Shown here piece after piece: positions 813-5,509 of a DNA stretch of 6,498 nt. The position numbers and the translations under genes are program-made. The notes beneath the pieces were generated by a model, which was not told the DNA's origin, made no database searches, and worked only from the letters and a program-made list of their open reading frames with translations. Positions within the stretch are counted from its first letter, which is position 1; the number at the start of each line of letters is the position of its first letter. The DNA is from a virus (Duplodnaviria; Heunggongvirae; Uroviricota; Caudoviricetes), in IMG/VR virus record IMGVR_UViG_2579778894_000010. One strand, written 5' to 3'.

Positions 813-1462
813 GCCGCCATCTCCCTGACCAGTTTTTCCGCCTGCTGGCGAACCTGCGCCAGAAAGGCCTCACCACATGCCTCAAGTTCATCGCGCCCGA
901 TGTAGCTGATTGCCGGTCCCTTCCGGGTCTTGTCGAAAACAGCAATAGCACCAGCGAAGAAAGCGCCTGTCGGCACCTGCTTCTCGTCCTTCGGGATAAA
1001 CCAGGCTGGCAGTTCAAAACCAATACGCCCGCGAATAAAAGCAATATGGTCTGCATCTTCCGGCCACCAAACTTCGCTGGTGGCAGCTTTGATCAGGAAA
1101 ACATAGCGCCCGCCTTTATCACGCATGGCACTGGCATGCTTCATGATGTAACGCATGCCGGTGATGTATTGCCCCTCATGCTGACTGGCGCGGCTGTACG
1201 GGGGATTACCAAAGGCAGCACCTTTAAGCTCCGCAAGACGTTCTGACCAGTCATGCGCCAGCGCGTTGTCTTCCGCAGTGTAATACGCGGCGCATTTGGC
1301 GTTATCACCATCAGTAAACAGATCCAGAACAAACGGGCCAAACAGGGTGTTAATTCCCCAGAAAATGTTGTCCGGCGTGCGCCACTGATCGCCCACTTCC
1401 TTCAGTTCATGGGCTGGTTTGTTCCGCAGCTCCACCAGCGCCTGGCAATATTTATTACTCAT
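809..1462 (-). CDS. phage Dam-type DNA N6-adenine methyltransferase
   Basis: Catalytic motif NPPY in FGNPPYS; overall resemblance to phage orphan N6-adenine MTases. Start chosen at ATG 1462..1460 (MSNKYCQ...) because it overlaps the upstream stop as TAATG; the track ORF extends to 1495 with an alternative upstream start. Confidence 0.85.
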   Translation of the reverse strand: MSNKYCQALVELRNKPAHELKEVGDQWRTPDNIFWGINTLFGPFVLDLFTDGDNAKCAAYYTAEDNALAHDWSERLAELKGAAFGNPPYSRASQHEGQYITGMRYIMKHASAMRDKGGRYVFLIKAATSEVWWPEDADHIAFIRGRIGFELPAWFIPKDEKQVPTGAFFAGAIAVFDKTRKGPAISYIGRDELEACGEAFLAQVRQQAEKLVREMAA

Positions 1463-1950
1463 TAAGCCCCCACGTAATTCCCTGACAGATACCACTCTTC
1501 ACCCGATGCAGCGCGCTTGCTGCTTTTCCGTAAACACCGCTCACGACGCGCAAGAAAATTGTTTCGCTCTTGCTGGGAGTGGCTTTCACGGAATGCCGCC
1601 ATCCACACCGTTGCAGCACGACGGTATAAGCCCCTGGACTCCAGTTCTTCCGCCTGGCGAGTCAGGCACAAAATCACCCGGGGATCGTTAGTGCCGACAT
1701 AGAAATTGCGCACAGGTCTGGATTCACGAACTGGTTGCGGTTCCGGCTCCTGCGGTATCTCAGTCAGCCGCGGGAAATGTCTGCGTGTATCCCCTTCACA
1801 ACGGTGAGCCACACGCCCACTCTGACGTAACTTGCTTGCTGACTGCAGAACGCGCTGTCGTGAGTAACCTGCAAAAGCATCCGCAATGTCTCCGGAAGTA
1901 CACCCCGGATGGGCTTCAATGAATTTCTGAACGTCATTCAAAAGACTCAT
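1462..1950 (-). CDS. PerC-like transcriptional regulator with N-terminal extension
   Basis: C-terminal half (RQAEELESRGLYRRAATVWMAAFRESHSQQERNNFLARRERCL) matches the PerC/Pch-type pattern (GLWRRAA..W ... RR..C) as I recall it. ATG at 1950..1948 lies just after the upstream TGA (1953-1955) with a G-rich SD-like sequence; the track start at 1956 is GTG. Confidence 0.6.
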   Translation of the reverse strand: MSLLNDVQKFIEAHPGCTSGDIADAFAGYSRQRVLQSASKLRQSGRVAHRCEGDTRRHFPRLTEIPQEPEPQPVRESRPVRNFYVGTNDPRVILCLTRQAEELESRGLYRRAATVWMAAFRESHSQQERNNFLARRERCLRKSSKRAASGEEWYLSGNYVGA

Positions 1951-1952
1951 GA

Positions 1953-2894
1953 TCACCCCCTGAATCCTGCCGGGATCTGGCTGTAGTCCACGTTGTCGTA
2001 ACTGGCTTTGAAGTACGGGTCTTCGCGTTTTTCGGTGTACGTGCTGACGGACGGCGATAAGCGCAGGGAAAGCTCATCCCATTTTTCCCGCAGCTTCGAC
2101 GGGCTGAGCACGTTACGGCACCAGAACGGATCGCGACTGACGCGGCTGTACATCTCGCAGATTTGTTTATGAGTACGACCATCCTGCACACACATCAGGC
2201 GAATTTCGTTTGCCCAGGCTGTCCAGTTCGGTTCTTTGGGACGAACCACCTCGCCGTCACATTCGGCGGCATGCTCGTACAGGGCGATGATTTTTTTCCA
2301 GAGCCACTGTGCGCAGGTCAAATCATCCTGCGTCCCCCACTGGCGCTTTTTAGGGCTGAATACAACCGCATCAGGATGGCGAGTTAAAAAATCCTGTTCA
2401 GCCGTCTGCGTGTCCGGTTGCGAAGCGTCCGGACGAGAAGTTTTTTTATCTGACGGATCATGTTTTGATTTTACTGACGGATCCCCACCAGATTCTGACG
2501 GGTGAAAACCCGCTTTTTTGCCAGATTTCGACGCATCAAATTTTGACGGGTCAGATTTTGATGCGTCAGATTTTGACGGGTCAGAATCTGACAGTTGAGA
2601 AAATGCCGCTGCCTGAAGCTTCGCAACGTTAAGCTGATAAACATTCGACGCATTGCGGTTACCCTGGCGACGCGCCCTACGCGTTAACCAGCCTTCTGCT
2701 TCCAGCCGTGCGATAGCCGTTCTGACGGTACTCATCCCCGCGCCAATCTGGCGGGCAATGGTTTCAATTGATGGCCAGCACACACCTTCGTCATTACTGA
2801 AATCAGCCAGGCGGGCCATAATTGCCACGCTGGATAATTTCATGCCTGATGCAGCGCAACCATCCCATACATAGCCGGTTAATTTAGTGCTCAT
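1953..2894 (-). CDS. replication initiator (lambda O-like organisation: N-terminal HTH DNA-binding domain, repeat linker, DnaT-like C-terminal domain)
   Basis: 313 aa. N-terminal winged-HTH segment (VAIMARLADFSNDEGVCWPSIETIARQIGAGMSTVRTAIARLEAEGWL); low-complexity SK(S/F)D-rich linker encoded by the iteron array; C-terminal tail ending SQIPAGFRG resembles the C-terminus of host DnaT. SD AGAGG 8 nt upstream of ATG 2894. Confidence 0.8.
   Translation of the reverse strand: MSTKLTGYVWDGCAASGMKLSSVAIMARLADFSNDEGVCWPSIETIARQIGAGMSTVRTAIARLEAEGWLTRRARRQGNRNASNVYQLNVAKLQAAAFSQLSDSDPSKSDASKSDPSKFDASKSGKKAGFHPSESGGDPSVKSKHDPSDKKTSRPDASQPDTQTAEQDFLTRHPDAVVFSPKKRQWGTQDDLTCAQWLWKKIIALYEHAAECDGEVVRPKEPNWTAWANEIRLMCVQDGRTHKQICEMYSRVSRDPFWCRNVLSPSKLREKWDELSLRLSPSVSTYTEKREDPYFKASYDNVDYSQIPAGFRG
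2446..2598. repeat. iteron-like array (candidate origin of replication) inside the initiator gene
   Basis: Five tandem 15-bp units at 2524-2598 (GATTTCGACGCATCA, AATTTTGACGGGTCA, GATTTTGATGCGTCA, GATTTTGACGGGTCA, GAATCTGACAGTTGA) plus three more TGACGG-containing copies at 2446-2505. Each unit carries a short palindrome TGACGGGTCA. Confidence 0.6.
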
Positions 2895-2903
2895 GACCGA
2901 CCT

Positions 2904-3242
2904 CTATTTCCCTGAATTTACGACGAAACTGTTCGAGCGGGCTGAAGCACTCATGCTCATAGCCTTCGCGGAGGTAGATAACACGTTGTGTTTCCGGCTC
3001 CCAACGAATGACTCTGACGGGCACTCCGTAGTGATCTTTGAACCAGCGGTTAACTTGTCGCAAAGGACTGTCTCCTTCTGCCGGTTGAAATCACCCACAG
3101 CCCACTCTGCAAAGCTGTGGGTTACAATTTCCCTGTCACCTGGTACATTTACTGCATAGCAATACTCCACCTTCGCTTTTCCACCCGGTACAGGAAGCGC
3201 AATCAGTTGCGAGCGACGGTAGTGTGTTGTTAAACTGTTCAT
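2904..3242 (-). CDS. hypothetical protein (112 aa)
   Basis: ATG 3242..3240 overlaps the upstream TGA as ATGA; ends 10 nt before the initiator start. No recognisable motif; C-terminal third is low complexity. Contains a perfect 8-bp hairpin at 3094-3121. Confidence 0.5.
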
Positions 3243-3802
3243 GCGTTAGTTTCTCCACAGTCACGACACGCCACGGCGCCCGGAGCTGCACACTCGCGGG
3301 CGTCATTACTTTCTGAAATGCAAAAAATTTTGTAGACCAGTGCTGCATGCTCCTGCAGCTTCGAAATTGAGAGGTACAGCTCGTCGTTAATTGCTGTCTT
3401 CTCATGCGGTTCCACTACACCGTCTTCAATTGCTGAACGAATCTGTTTTGAATAACTGCCGATCTGTTCAATGACTTCCAGCAGGCGCTGGTTAATATCG
3501 GCGTTGTCCACATCCTCGACGTCAGGAAGAGACACAAAGACGCCATTTGCAGACTGCGCCACTGCGTCAGCAATGAAGTGAGTTCCACCAGCACGTTGCA
3601 AAATCATTGCCCATCCCAGCGGGAAAATCTGATCGCCATCGGCACGAAGGCGGTTAAATAATGCGTTCTCTGTTACATCCAGCCAGTCAGCTGCTTCAGC
3701 GTAACCACCCGGCAACTTTGCGATAGTTTTTCTGACAGCTTTCACGTACCACTCAGGCTGTTTTTCTACTTTCCAGTGATGCTTACCCACGGTTAGCCTC
3801 AT
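3239..3802 (-). CDS. CII-like/YdaT-like phage regulatory protein (tentative)
   Basis: Occupies the cII position directly after cro. Central segment ([41 protein letters not shown]) looks like a CII-type HTH; acidic C-terminal part. Start uncertain: ATG 3802 has a weak SD, in-frame GTG 3790 has GAGG at a 6-nt spacer, and the track ORF starts at 3904 overlapping cro. Confidence 0.55.
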
Positions 3803-3827
3803 CGTTCTGTGGTTTCTGTTAATCGAT

Positions 3828-4028
3828 TTATCCATTAGATTTTTCATAAAGCTCAGGTTTAAATGGCAACCGTCCGCAAGTTCTATATGCAGCTTCTGCT
3901 GCACGTCCTTTTGGAATTAACTGGCCCGGACGGTTTCGCCACTGATAAACGGCTTCAGTTGTTATGCCGAAAAAAGCAGCAACTTTCTCAATACTGCCGA
4001 AGTAGCTTTCGATATCGTCAGTTGTCAT
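3828..4028 (-). CDS. cro: Cro-type repressor (P22 Cro-like)
   Basis: 66 aa, divergent from the cI-like gene. HTH segment FGSIEKVAAFFGITTEAVYQWRN resembles P22 Cro as I recall it. Strong SD GGAGGG 5-10 nt upstream of ATG 4028. Confidence 0.8.
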   Translation of the reverse strand: MTTDDIESYFGSIEKVAAFFGITTEAVYQWRNRPGQLIPKGRAAEAAYRTCGRLPFKPELYEKSNG

Positions 4029-4125
4029 ACGCCCTCCAAACTAAGTTTTGTTAGATGCTAATTACAAATCTATCTTTGGTCAATAAAAACTAAGATTACT
4101 TAGCGATTAAAGAAATGGTGCTCCT
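4029..4125. promoter_or_regulatory. divergent immunity promoter/operator region (oR-like; pR toward cro, pRM toward cI)
   Basis: Two 14-bp dyad sites of form CTAA-N6-TTAG: 4041-4054 (CTAAGTTTTGTTAG) and 4090-4103 (CTAAGATTACTTAG). Minus-strand candidate pR: -35 TTGACC, 17-nt spacer, -10 TAGCAT, placed so the 4041-4054 site overlaps the transcript start. Confidence 0.6.
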
Positions 4126-4752
4126 ATGGAAACGGTTGGTCAGCGTATAAAAGCTCTGAGAAGAGTTACCAGAACGTCCCAGAAAGAATTGGGTAAATTT
4201 TGTGGAGTAAGCGACGTTGCTGTGGGGTACTGGGAGAAAGACATCAATACCCCTGGCGGGGAGGCACTTTCGAAATTAGCGAAGTTCTTCAATACGTCAA
4301 TAGATTACATTCTTTACGGTGCTGAGTTTGAAGGCAAACTCGTCACAAACATGCGCAGAGTTCCTGTAATATCGTGGGTTCAGGCTGGGCAGTTTACTGA
4401 GTGCAGGGCAGCAGAAGTGTTTAGTGAAGTGGACAAGTGGGTAGATACATCATTAAAGGTTGGTGATAACTCATTTGCATTAGAGGTTAAAGGTGACTCC
4501 ATGACTAACCCTAATGGCCTCCCAACAATACCAGAAGGCGCAACAGTGATTGTAGATCCAGATGCAGAACCTCGTCATGGAAAAATAGTCATCGCTCGAC
4601 TTGATGGAACAAACGAAGCTACAGTAAAAAAATTAGTCATCGATGGCCCTCAAAAGTTTTTAGTGCCATTAAATCCTCGGTATCCCAACATCCCTATCAA
4701 TGGTAATTGCCTTATCATTGGTGTAGTCAAAGGAGTTCAATACGAACTCTAA
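4126..4752 (+). CDS. cI: cI/C2-type prophage repressor (XRE HTH plus S24 LexA-like autopeptidase domain)
   Basis: 208 aa. N-terminal HTH (QKELGKFCGVSDVAVGYWEK); C-terminal S24 signatures: catalytic Ser in GDSM, Lys in EATVKKLV, and a cleavage-site-like AG; overall resembles P22 C2. Confidence 0.9.
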   Translation: METVGQRIKALRRVTRTSQKELGKFCGVSDVAVGYWEKDINTPGGEALSKLAKFFNTSIDYILYGAEFEGKLVTNMRRVPVISWVQAGQFTECRAAEVFSEVDKWVDTSLKVGDNSFALEVKGDSMTNPNGLPTIPEGATVIVDPDAEPRHGKIVIARLDGTNEATVKKLVIDGPQKFLVPLNPRYPNIPINGNCLIIGVVKGVQYEL

Positions 4753-4764
4753 GACCTCTCTTCT

Positions 4765-4797
4765 CTAACTAAGGCACCGAACCAAGAAAAGTTTGGT
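4765..4797 (+). terminator. rho-independent terminator downstream of the cI-like gene
   Basis: Stem CACCGAAC (4765-4772) / GTTTGGTG (4781-4788), 8 bp with one G-U, 8-nt loop, followed by TTTTCTCTT. Confidence 0.55.
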
Positions 4798-4824
4798 GTT
4801 TTCTCTTGTCATGATAACTAAGTT
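4796..4824 (+). promoter_or_regulatory. candidate pL/oL-like element: operator copy overlapping a sigma70-like promoter
   Basis: AACTAAGTTAAGTTAGAT (4806-4823) matches the oR site AACTAAGTTTTGTTAGAT (4039-4056) at 16 of 18 positions. It sits inside -35 TTGTCA (4796-4801), 17-nt spacer, -10 TAGATT (4819-4824) on the plus strand. Confidence 0.4.
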
Positions 4825-4917
4825 AAGTTAGATTTTATATCAAAGATAACGAACAGGCAGGACGCCCACGAAGTAGCCGCCTGGGGCATATGAAGTCCAG
4901 GATGATTCGTTAGCAAC

Positions 4918-4940
4918 AAAAAAGCGCCCTACAGGACGCT
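4918..4940 (-). terminator. rho-independent terminator for the minus-strand orphan gene
   Basis: On the minus strand: AGCGUCC-UGUA-GGGCGCU stem-loop (7 bp, one G-U) followed by U6 (plus-strand A-run 4918-4923), about 40 nt after the stop at 4980. It is strand-specific: the same position is a C-A mismatch in plus-strand RNA. Confidence 0.5.
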
Positions 4941-4979
4941 TAGCTCTTTAACAATCTGGATATCCACAACAGTAGTAAT

Positions 4980-5471
4980 CTACAGATTGCCGTTAAGTTT
5001 TCTGGACAACTCCTCAATGGATGGAGGCGATACGTAATCCGGATTTTTATTCATCAGAAACTTATTTTCACAGTGGAGGCACCTGCTTTTATGAAAAAGC
5101 TCATCTTCGCTAACCGGGAATGGTTGAAGTATCGATACTATCTTTTGTCCAAAACATTTTGGGCAAAGATGCATGGTTATGCTGCCACCGTTCACGATTA
5201 CCTCCTTCGAGTATACAAAAGTACCCGACTCAAGTTGGTTAAGGATATAGCCTTCCGTCTGAGCCTCAAAGTTTTCGAATTCTGCAATTTTAGCTTTGAG
5301 AGAAGCATTTATTTCTTGATAAGAGCCCACCAGTTCAACGAGAGACACGCATTCGCGCTGAATAGACGCAAGCTTTGAGTTCAGCTCACCAATAGCCGCA
5401 TTTACTTCAGCTTGAGTTTTTGCCTCGTTCATTAGTTTTGCAATCTGGGCTGTTTCACGAATAGCCGTCAT
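4980..5471 (-). CDS. orphan coiled-coil / C4 zinc-ribbon protein (about 163 aa); candidate moron
   Basis: Predicted start ATG 5471..5469 (MTAIRETAQIAKLMNEAK...); the track ORF extends to 5759 but the extra N-terminal 96 codons look like non-coding read-through. N-terminal half is heptad-like and Ala/Glu/Lys-rich; C-terminal half has CPKC-x21-CLHC. By eye it is AT-rich and convergent with cI. Alternative GTG start at 5495. Confidence 0.6.
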   Translation of the reverse strand: MTAIRETAQIAKLMNEAKTQAEVNAAIGELNSKLASIQRECVSLVELVGSYQEINASLKAKIAEFENFEAQTEGYILNQLESGTFVYSKEVIVNGGSITMHLCPKCFGQKIVSILQPFPVSEDELFHKSRCLHCENKFLMNKNPDYVSPPSIEELSRKLNGNL

Positions 5472-5509
5472 TGCTGCCGTTAATTCAGCGATCACATTGA
5501 ATACTCTTA

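Follow-up and report, generated by a model that had tools for sequence, protein, structure and literature searches.

How a temperate phage with a single replication gene brings the replicative helicase to its origin is the question raised by a stretch of DNA of 6,498 nucleotides (IMG/VR record IMGVR_UViG_2579778894_000010, Caudoviricetes), the whole of which we refer to as the window. It represents the early-right part of a lambdoid E. coli/Shigella prophage of the SfV, SfII, SfIV and mEp460 kind, and contains a replication initiator gene (1953..2894, minus strand, ATG start) whose product of 313 amino acids (aa) matches phrog_391, 'replication initiation O-like', over its full length (E 5.5e-135). 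The protein ends in the peptide SQIPAGFRG (1956..1982, minus strand), which by translation and by comparison with the host protein DnaT conforms to an [IV]PxGFRG motif at the very carboxyl terminus. An initial annotation of this locus described the C-terminus as DnaT-like and proposed either that helicase loading is outsourced to the restart primosome of the host or that the module is defective. The comparisons described here lead us to lean towards a different answer, in which the tail would be a portable peptide that engages DnaC-type loaders, and the initiator would mimic DnaT and use the DnaB-DnaC complex of the host directly.

A lambda O-type initiator and its terminal peptide

In the AlphaFold2 (AF2) model the initiator comprises a winged-helix domain (residues 1-98), a disordered linker (102-160), a confidently predicted helical C-terminal domain (162-280) and a disordered tail (284-313). 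The DNA-binding domain at the N-terminus (residues 1-98; 2601..2894, minus strand; predicted local distance difference test score, pLDDT, of about 72-88) matches Pfam HTH_36 over residues 23-70 (E 4.2e-11; 42.9 bits against a cut-off of 25), and a Foldseek search of the PDB with the full model gave matches confined to MarR/winged helix-turn-helix (wHTH) regulators, all of them for this domain. By analogy with lambda O it is presumed to be the part of the protein that binds iterons. The Phage_rep_O domain (PF04492), which is matched by the O proteins of lambda, Gifsy-1 and mEpX1, was not found in the target by Pfam, which returned just HTH_36 and other wHTH families; relatedness of the Phage_rep_O and HTH_36 types of N-domain has been reported from HHpred comparisons by Brezellec et al. 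(PMC5509034). Beyond the linker lies a helical core domain (residues 172-282; 2049..2381, minus strand; pLDDT 84-98) that is homologous to the C-terminal domain of lambda O, with 39.8% identity to O of lambda, 434 and 933W (tblastn, E 4e-18), and the initiator as a whole is 31% identical to lambda O over 216 aa (BLASTP, E 3e-26). It is the C-terminal domain of lambda O that interacts with P. The core domain is widespread, with 2689 clusters (50% identity) at E<=1e-3, and is conserved irrespective of the loader that accompanies it. The remaining segment, residues 283-313 (1956..2048, minus strand; pLDDT <60), is a disordered tail in which a hypervariable spacer is followed by the conserved terminal peptide.

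DnaT of E. coli K-12 (NC_000913) ends in SQIPPGFRG, so that eight of the nine residues are equal to those of the target and both peptides stand at the extreme C-terminus; outside this tail the BLASTP comparison of the two proteins gave nothing else convincing. Across 51 members of the initiator family (56-99% identity) P308, G310, F311 and R312 vary little or not at all and the approximately 25 residues ahead of the terminal motif are hypervariable. Because P..GFR is conserved after such a spacer and the DnaT family itself keeps IPxGFRG, the resemblance is, on sequence grounds, more than a chance match. A profile-profile comparison (hhalign) with DnaT aligned the last 17 columns only (P 2e-4), and one sister branch of the target's family ends ..VNHISEPDTEIPPGFRG, which has 17 residues in common with the DnaT terminus ..VNTVSEPDSQIPPGFRG.

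The folded part of the protein has a different affinity. The three-helix domain with which DnaT binds single-stranded DNA (ssDNA; PF17948) gave no match in Pfam even at E<=10, phmmer against the PDB was negative for DnaT likeness, a core-domain profile built from 150 diverse representatives scored about -1 bit on DnaT, and Foldseek found nothing in the PDB below E 1.7 with a C-terminal-only model (pLDDT 84), which was built because the full model had given N-domain matches only. Nor did BLASTP reveal any counterpart in the target of the N-terminal oligomerisation domain and acidic linker of DnaT, the N-terminus here being a wHTH domain. With Pfam, phmmer, hhalign and a deep hidden Markov model all negative apart from the tail, DnaT homology of the folded C-terminal domain was ruled out. 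The DnaT-like peptide reported in the initial annotation is therefore real, and the wider 'DnaT-like C-terminus' is not, the folded domain being that of lambda O; the profile check that had been proposed against DnaT succeeds in the last 17 columns and fails, in sequence and in fold, for the domain ahead of them. We consequently regard the target not as a member of the DnaT family, with which it shares the terminal peptide alone, but, since its core is homologous to lambda O and its DnaT likeness is limited to that peptide, as a lambda O-type initiator with a different (HTH_36) predicted origin-binding domain. The DnaD C-terminal domain/SPP1 G39P fold gave low scores with the target and no sequence-level Pfam match, and is a lead rather than a membership. 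Some proteins of this sort are labelled 'primosomal protein I' by annotation pipelines. Three other identities for the peptide were considered and rejected by reasoning, namely a beta-clamp-binding motif (QL[SD]LF) and a ClpX degradation tag, neither of which fits, and a canonical mimic of the SSB C-terminus, which needs a terminal Phe carboxylate.

Terminal peptides and the loaders they accompany

Representatives of the lambda O-type C-domain have C-termini that fall into discrete classes, including IPxGFRG, the ..D[FL]xNTDW[IA]xG.. type of lambda O itself, ..WNSxEAWENTL and others. Two relatives that resemble the target up to residue ~282 (P0044, 74% identical; P0067, 66-69% identical) have a lambda O-type tail, ..DFDNTDWIYG.., and are directly followed by a Phage_lambda_P gene. 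A scan of IMG/VR with the C-terminal alignment gave only loci that were 97-100% identical, and GTDB was therefore used for diversity, yielding 52 diverse loci that were analysed along with the other loci fetched. All 27 lambda-type tails in this collection have a lambda-P-like gene directly downstream; a DnaC-like gene was not seen in that position, and no locus had neither gene within +-5 kb. The 23 GFRG-type tails include none followed by a lambda-P-like gene, three with a DnaC-like gene directly downstream and 20 with neither within +-5 kb. Pfam annotation of the next three open reading frames (ORFs) gave 25 Phage_lambda_P matches in the non-GFRG group against 0 in the GFRG group, where three IstB/DnaA-ATPase matches were found.

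The association is also seen from the side of the loader. Of the ORFs directly upstream of Gifsy/YdaV-type DnaC-like loaders in IMG/VR, 76 of 78 end in [VPL]NxISxP[DG]xxIPxGFRG, and they do so on unrelated protein bodies that form at least three clusters. Selection by the tail alone, using a DNA pattern for IPxGFRG followed by a stop codon, retrieved 120 IMG/VR loci (median length 10.7 kb), 47 of them with a DnaC/YdaV-type loader and 0 of 120 with any gene resembling lambda P or DnaB along the whole locus; those that lack a loader have several different initiator bodies. Among individual modules, the Rac protein YdaU (DUF1376) ends ..VNTVSLPDSAIPPGFRG, aligns with DnaT over its last 80 residues (E 9e-9) and lies ahead of YdaV, a protein with 50% identity to E. 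coli DnaC along its entire length. A DnaC homologue likewise follows Gifsy-1 'O', which has a Phage_rep_O N-domain and the terminus ..VNHISAPDKTIPTGFRG, gp15 of Shigella phage 75/02 ends in the ..VNHISEPDTEIPPGFRG already mentioned and precedes a DnaC-like gene (gp16), and a Klebsiella Kp4885-1 initiator (Phg_2220_C) ending ..INHVSTPDNFVPAGFRG and gp25 of Aeromonas pAEv1818, which has a true Pfam DnaT domain and ends ..PPGFN, each precede a DnaC-like gene. The host gene dnaT is itself immediately upstream of dnaC, and within the target's own family a DnaC-like gene still directly follows the initiator in three relatives (L106, L110 and L112). Of the three loader types compared, [IV]PxGFRG thus occurs only with the DnaC/YdaV type and never with lambda P, GFRG-tailed initiators being directly followed by a DnaC/YdaV-type loader or having none at all, and the peptide is portable, ending DnaT and at least five unrelated kinds of phage initiator. 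Since all of these phages use host DnaB while the tail changes with the type of loader, the loader is the likely partner of the tail.

Other tails were met in the same loci. The distant DnaC-like loaders of phiP27, mEpX1 and Hafnia yong1 are 27-29% identical to YdaV, and a ..KDYGQT[DE][MI]P[SA]WA.. tail lies upstream of two of these three, in mEpX1 (L152) and Hafnia yong1 (L154), L17 of phiP27 ending differently. Tails of the ..WNSxEAWENTL (Serratia, Erwinia, Xenorhabdus) and ..EWDLTKTMTADKLNQLIQEGY (Aeromonas) types lie upstream of lambda-P-like genes. Prophages of Acerihabitans, Sodalis and Edwardsiella (L123, L124 and L125) combine a lambda O-type C-domain and a ..WNxIW.. tail with neither a P nor a DnaC-like gene; large ORFs of 403-1031 aa follow their initiators, and one DnaB_C match occurs somewhere in the non-GFRG group. 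Two GTDB contigs of 5 and 23 kb from metagenome-assembled genomes (MAGs) named 'Bacillota bacterium' (L101) and 'Veillonella parvula' (L105) carry an Escherichia-type prophage replication region with a ..EPDTEIPPGFRG initiator, and are probably cases of mis-binning.

Helicase loading without a phage loader

No P- or DnaC-type gene lies next to the initiator and Pfam, PHROG and phmmer searches of the window gave no homologue of a loader or helicase, which bears out the initial annotation in its description of a PerC-like gene (Pfam PerC, E 2.3e-9) following directly where a loader might be expected. A single replication gene is present in the complete SfV genome (37 kb, 53 genes), and PhiR29_2 (host given in the record as E. 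coli C) has an identical 313-aa gene; neither has an annotated loader or helicase. Unfiltered phmmer searches were made of all six-frame ORFs of SfV, PhiR29_2 and the window, with E. coli DnaC, Rac YdaV, lambda P, a second P, three distant DnaC-like loaders and a phage DnaB-like helicase as queries. They gave no DnaC-, P- or DnaB-like ORF, every value being E>0.2 against E<1e-30 for the positive controls, and thus no loader elsewhere in these phages that could serve the initiator. As the module is without a P- or DnaC-type loader, helicase loading must depend on the host.

The mechanism we propose begins at an iteron-like array within the initiator gene itself (2488..2594), which consists of about seven overlapping or adjacent copies of CCGTCAAAATCTGA at 15-bp spacing, is partly palindromic (GTCAGATTTTGAC) and encodes the DPSKSDASKS repeats of the disordered linker. 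Tandem Repeats Finder gives it a period of 15, 4.3 copies and a score of 86-100, and direct and inverted repeats were also found; the iteron pattern has 7 matches in the array against 0.68 expected over the whole window, and 0 of 200 shuffles reach 8. Just downstream in the direction of transcription is an A+T-rich patch (2440..2479, GC 0.325) containing ..gatccgtcagataaaaaaac.., which, by analogy with ori-lambda, is presumed to be the unwinding element, as the array is presumed to represent origin iterons. Iterons are annotated inside O in the lambda record, and it is because lambda O has the equivalent layout that we infer an origin here, iterons and an AT-rich region inside the initiator gene being a lambda O-type feature that the target has at the level of its sequence. 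Homologues differ in how many SD(A/T/P)SK repeats they have, from ~1 to >8 (e.g. P0048; alignment columns 120-200), and with them in the copies of the iteron, so that variation of the linker amounts to iteron copy-number polymorphism within a coding region.

The wHTH domain would bind the 15-bp iterons inside its own coding sequence to form an O-some-like complex, which would open the origin at the adjoining A+T-rich patch. The flexible tail would then dock a DnaC-type loader, or the DnaB-DnaC complex, in the way proposed here for the tail of DnaT, and the captured host complex would be delivered to the opened origin for DnaC to load DnaB. On this scheme the phage could dispense with a loader gene because the initiator acts as a DnaT mimic; it would stand in for DnaT and need neither PriA, PriB nor DnaT itself, and release of P by DnaK/DnaJ would presumably not be required. 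Classical lambda genetics places the specificity for P in the C-terminal part of O, which agrees with contact between tail and loader. A more far-reaching proposal, which we put forward tentatively, joins these elements into one history. In it, [IV]PxGFRG would be the means by which DnaT passes the preprimosome on to DnaB-DnaC, a 'DnaC-loader docking tag' that lambdoid phages have grafted onto unrelated scaffolds; phages having the tag only would have dropped their own loader and use host DnaC, dnaT-dnaC would be a domesticated phage cassette, and the loader type (lambda P, YdaV/DnaC or phiP27-type) would be specified by a modular code in the final ~15 residues of lambdoid initiators.

Several considerations weigh against the docking of DnaC-type loaders by the tail. 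The contact of tail and DnaC is deduced from comparison of sequences, the sampled loci are phylogenetically non-independent with many close relatives among them, and the target's tail, ..YDNVDYSQIPAGFRG, is without the upstream VNxISxPD part that is present beside loader genes. Removal of residues 154-179 from DnaT has as its sole reported effect a weaker and less cooperative binding of ssDNA (PMC4132743). In a cryo-electron microscopy study of 2026 the N-terminal domain of DnaT, not its tail, was proposed to recruit DnaB/DnaC; how it does so 'remains unknown' according to the same study, which does not discuss the tail (PMC13377028). DopC, an O-like protein of Cellvibrionales and Oceanospirillales with an HTH_36 N-domain and a DnaT C-domain, is found next to the P-like protein DopE (PMC5509034), and would be a counter-example if it keeps a GFRG tail. 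Lastly, the DNA encoding the tail abuts the loader gene and holds its Shine-Dalgarno sequence, and linkage or nucleotide-level constraint in one recombination block could explain part of the association between tail and loader.

The two proposals of the initial annotation fare differently as alternatives. A defective module, or one reliant on a loader from another resident prophage such as the YdaV type of Rac, would account for the missing loader gene in the window, and many E. coli strains do hold other prophages with DnaC-like loaders (PMC2669165). Yet the identical module is present in the complete phages PhiR29_2, SfV, SfII, SfIV and mEp460, thousands of genomes retain the intact and conserved initiator ORF, and purifying selection seems to act on the tail and on both domains. 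SfV and SfII are moreover inducible, lysogenising phages. Because SfV and PhiR29_2 are complete phages that carry the module and encode nothing like DnaC, P or DnaB, it is not defective, and this explanation, largely refuted, has very little left to recommend it. We also consider it unlikely, though far less so, that the tail plugs the initiator into the PriA-PriB(-DnaT) restart primosome, making loading dependent on priA, priB and dnaT; the tail could bind PriA or PriB, as the C-terminal region of DnaT may, or act like the C-terminus of SSB (an acidic run, then I-P-x-x-F). The peptide is after all common to DnaT, whose C-terminal domain docks on PriA and whose linker docks on PriB in the preprimosome (PMC13377028), and some phages and plasmids replicate with the support of restart proteins (PMC5778457). 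What this leaves unexplained is that the tail changes with the loader (P, YdaV-type or phiP27-type) while PriA and PriB stay constant, and that the parts of DnaT which are reported to contact PriA and PriB, the folded C-domain and the acidic linker, are without a counterpart in the target. In the SSB C-terminus the carboxylate of the final Phe is essential, whereas in the target Arg-Gly follows the Phe. The host dependence in that proposal is thus upheld by the missing loader gene, and the comparative data favour a DnaC-type loader over the restart primosome as the partner.

The remaining alternative, which strikes us as slightly more doubtful again than the restart primosome, is that the tail has no partner-specific role and owes its conservation to the ribosome-binding site that its DNA provides for the next gene and to their joint transfer as one recombination block, with DnaB-DnaC recruited through the C-terminal core, which is after all conserved with any loader, or through another host factor. 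The gene junction lends it some substance. In the target the codons AGG GGG for Arg312-Gly313 (1956..1961, minus strand) also provide the Shine-Dalgarno sequence for the gene that follows, with its ATG 5 nt past the stop, and the same Arg-Gly/Shine-Dalgarno layout is found at dnaT-dnaC (L001), ydaU-ydaV (L146) and Gifsy-1 O-dnaC (L148), the rare codons AGG and AGA predominating for the tail Arg. In GFRG-tailed genes more generally, the two codons ahead of the stop (AGG GGG or AGA GGG) serve as the Shine-Dalgarno sequence of a next gene with its ATG 2-6 nt past the stop. Against a role at the nucleotide level, the conserved 9-17 residues go far beyond what a ribosome-binding site needs, the ~25 residues ahead of them drift freely, and the motif persists where the next start is 22-41 nt away (L100, L119 and L088) and in loader-less loci on several protein bodies. 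The Ile, Pro, Gly and Phe codons vary synonymously, as does that for Arg (AGG, AGA, CGT or CGC), and therefore point to selection on the protein. Conservation over 9-17 residues, synonymous codons, gaps of 22-41 nt and survival of repeated loader loss likewise disfavour pure linkage as the source of the association. The docking of a DnaC-type loader remains the reading that we prefer, and the shared layout of the host dnaT-dnaC junction and the phage modules fits a common cassette origin.

The locus and its relation to known systems

The PerC/YfdN-like regulator gene (1462..1956, minus strand; phrog_1324, E 2.8e-78; 'PerC family transcriptional regulator' in RefSeq) overlaps the stop codon of the initiator and occupies the slot in which related modules have the loader gene, AGG GGG being kept as its ribosome-binding site. 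That the loader gene has been exchanged so exactly behind the stop codon of the initiator suggests that the locus derives from a module of initiator plus DnaC-like gene. Further along are genes for Dam (809-1495), for a protein of 108 aa with a LexA DNA-binding domain only (486-812; PF01726, E 2.6e-19; TIGR00498 over residues 1-91) and for RusA (100-489), all on the minus strand. The LexA-like protein is without an S24 self-cleavage domain and could be an uncleavable LexA mimic that occupies SOS boxes during induction. On the other side of the initiator, a DUF4222 gene (2884..3063, minus strand; Pfam, E 8.6e-19) overlaps its start by 11 nt and is a frequent upstream neighbour of this initiator family, with an equal position in L083, L084, L085 and RefSeq. 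A YmfM-like ORF of 112 aa (2904-3242, minus strand; phrog_1170, E 4.6e-70), annotated in the GenBank phage PhiR29_2, overlaps DUF4222 in a different frame, the pair reflecting either overprinting of genes or a mis-annotation that has been passed on. Genes for a YmfL/CII-like protein (3239-3904, minus strand), a Cro-like protein (3828-4028, minus strand) and a cI-type S24 repressor (4126-4752, plus strand) follow. GC is 0.42 across ~3750-5250, which covers the immunity region and an ORF of unannotated function, against 0.50-0.58 in the remaining window, and suggests a mosaic insertion of different origin; the ORF is a 516-nt hypothetical gene in RefSeq (~4980-5495, minus strand) with CxxC..CxxC motifs.

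The RefSeq gene set agrees in its boundaries with the ORFs found here across the window, and the initiator is represented by a coding sequence with identical boundaries, 'helix-turn-helix domain-containing protein' WP_000104986.1. The 1.9-kb stretch around it is matched in 3410 of 5426 complete E. coli genomes, and deposited phages that match the window at 95-99% identity include SfV, SfII, SfIV, mEp460, PhiR29/PhiR49 and Stx2-converting phages. The gene itself is thus common, being carried by Shigella serotype-converting as well as Stx2-converting phages, and the docking of DnaC-type loaders would, if true, account for replication with a single replication gene in a large class of temperate phages, Stx2-converting and O-antigen-converting ones among them. 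It would also suggest a simple rule by which dependence on a helicase loader is predicted from the last residues of the initiator, and the pattern yields a concrete, testable hypothesis for the recruitment of DnaB/DnaC by DnaT in E. coli replication restart.

The lambda O-like initiator family, single-initiator modules and O-like proteins fused to DnaT-derived elements were all known already. What is new is a peptide of 9-17 residues that ends both DnaT and unrelated initiators, goes with DnaC-type loaders only and outlasts the loss of the phage loader; in the searchable literature we found no discussion of the DnaT tail motif and no description of the tail as a portable, loader-type-specific peptide common to DnaT or of its retention in loader-less phages. 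With lambda O the target has in common the helical C-terminal domain, the iterons and AT-rich patch in the part encoding the linker, and a gene position after cro and cII-like genes; it differs in lacking the Phage_rep_O N-domain and a downstream P gene, and in ending IPxGFRG where lambda O ends ..LTNTDWIYGVDL (lambda O C-terminus ..LDLTNTDWIYGVDL). E. coli DnaT resembles it in the C-terminal peptide (SQIPPGFRG and SQIPAGFRG), whereas the DnaT N-domain, the acidic PriB-binding linker and the PF17948 domain are missing from the target, whose gene is not beside dnaC and whose product is predicted to be an origin-specific initiator binding double-stranded DNA rather than a restart adaptor.

DopC comes close as an O-like protein with an HTH_36 N-domain and a DnaT-derived C-terminal element, but this element is a folded DnaT C-domain (HHpred to 2RU8), the C-domain and iterons of lambda O are absent, and the gene is chromosomal with the P-like DopE as partner. 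In relying on a single origin-binding initiator and on the helicase and loader of the host, the module resembles the 'initiator-solo' phage replication modules reportedly distinguished by Weigel and Seitz in 2006, and plasmid initiators such as pSC101 RepA and R6K pi, which recruit host DnaB-DnaC directly; we know of no sequence that these share with the target, nor of a DnaT-type tail adaptor described for them. The nearest relatives in organisation are the modules in which an initiator is followed by a DnaC-type loader, namely Rac YdaU-YdaV, Gifsy-1 O-DnaC, 75/02 gp15-gp16 and Kp4885-1. Their initiator bodies (DUF1376, Phage_rep_O and Phg_2220_C) differ from that of the target, which shares with them the terminal peptide and the Arg-Gly/Shine-Dalgarno layout at the end of the gene, and has a PerC-like gene in place of the loader.

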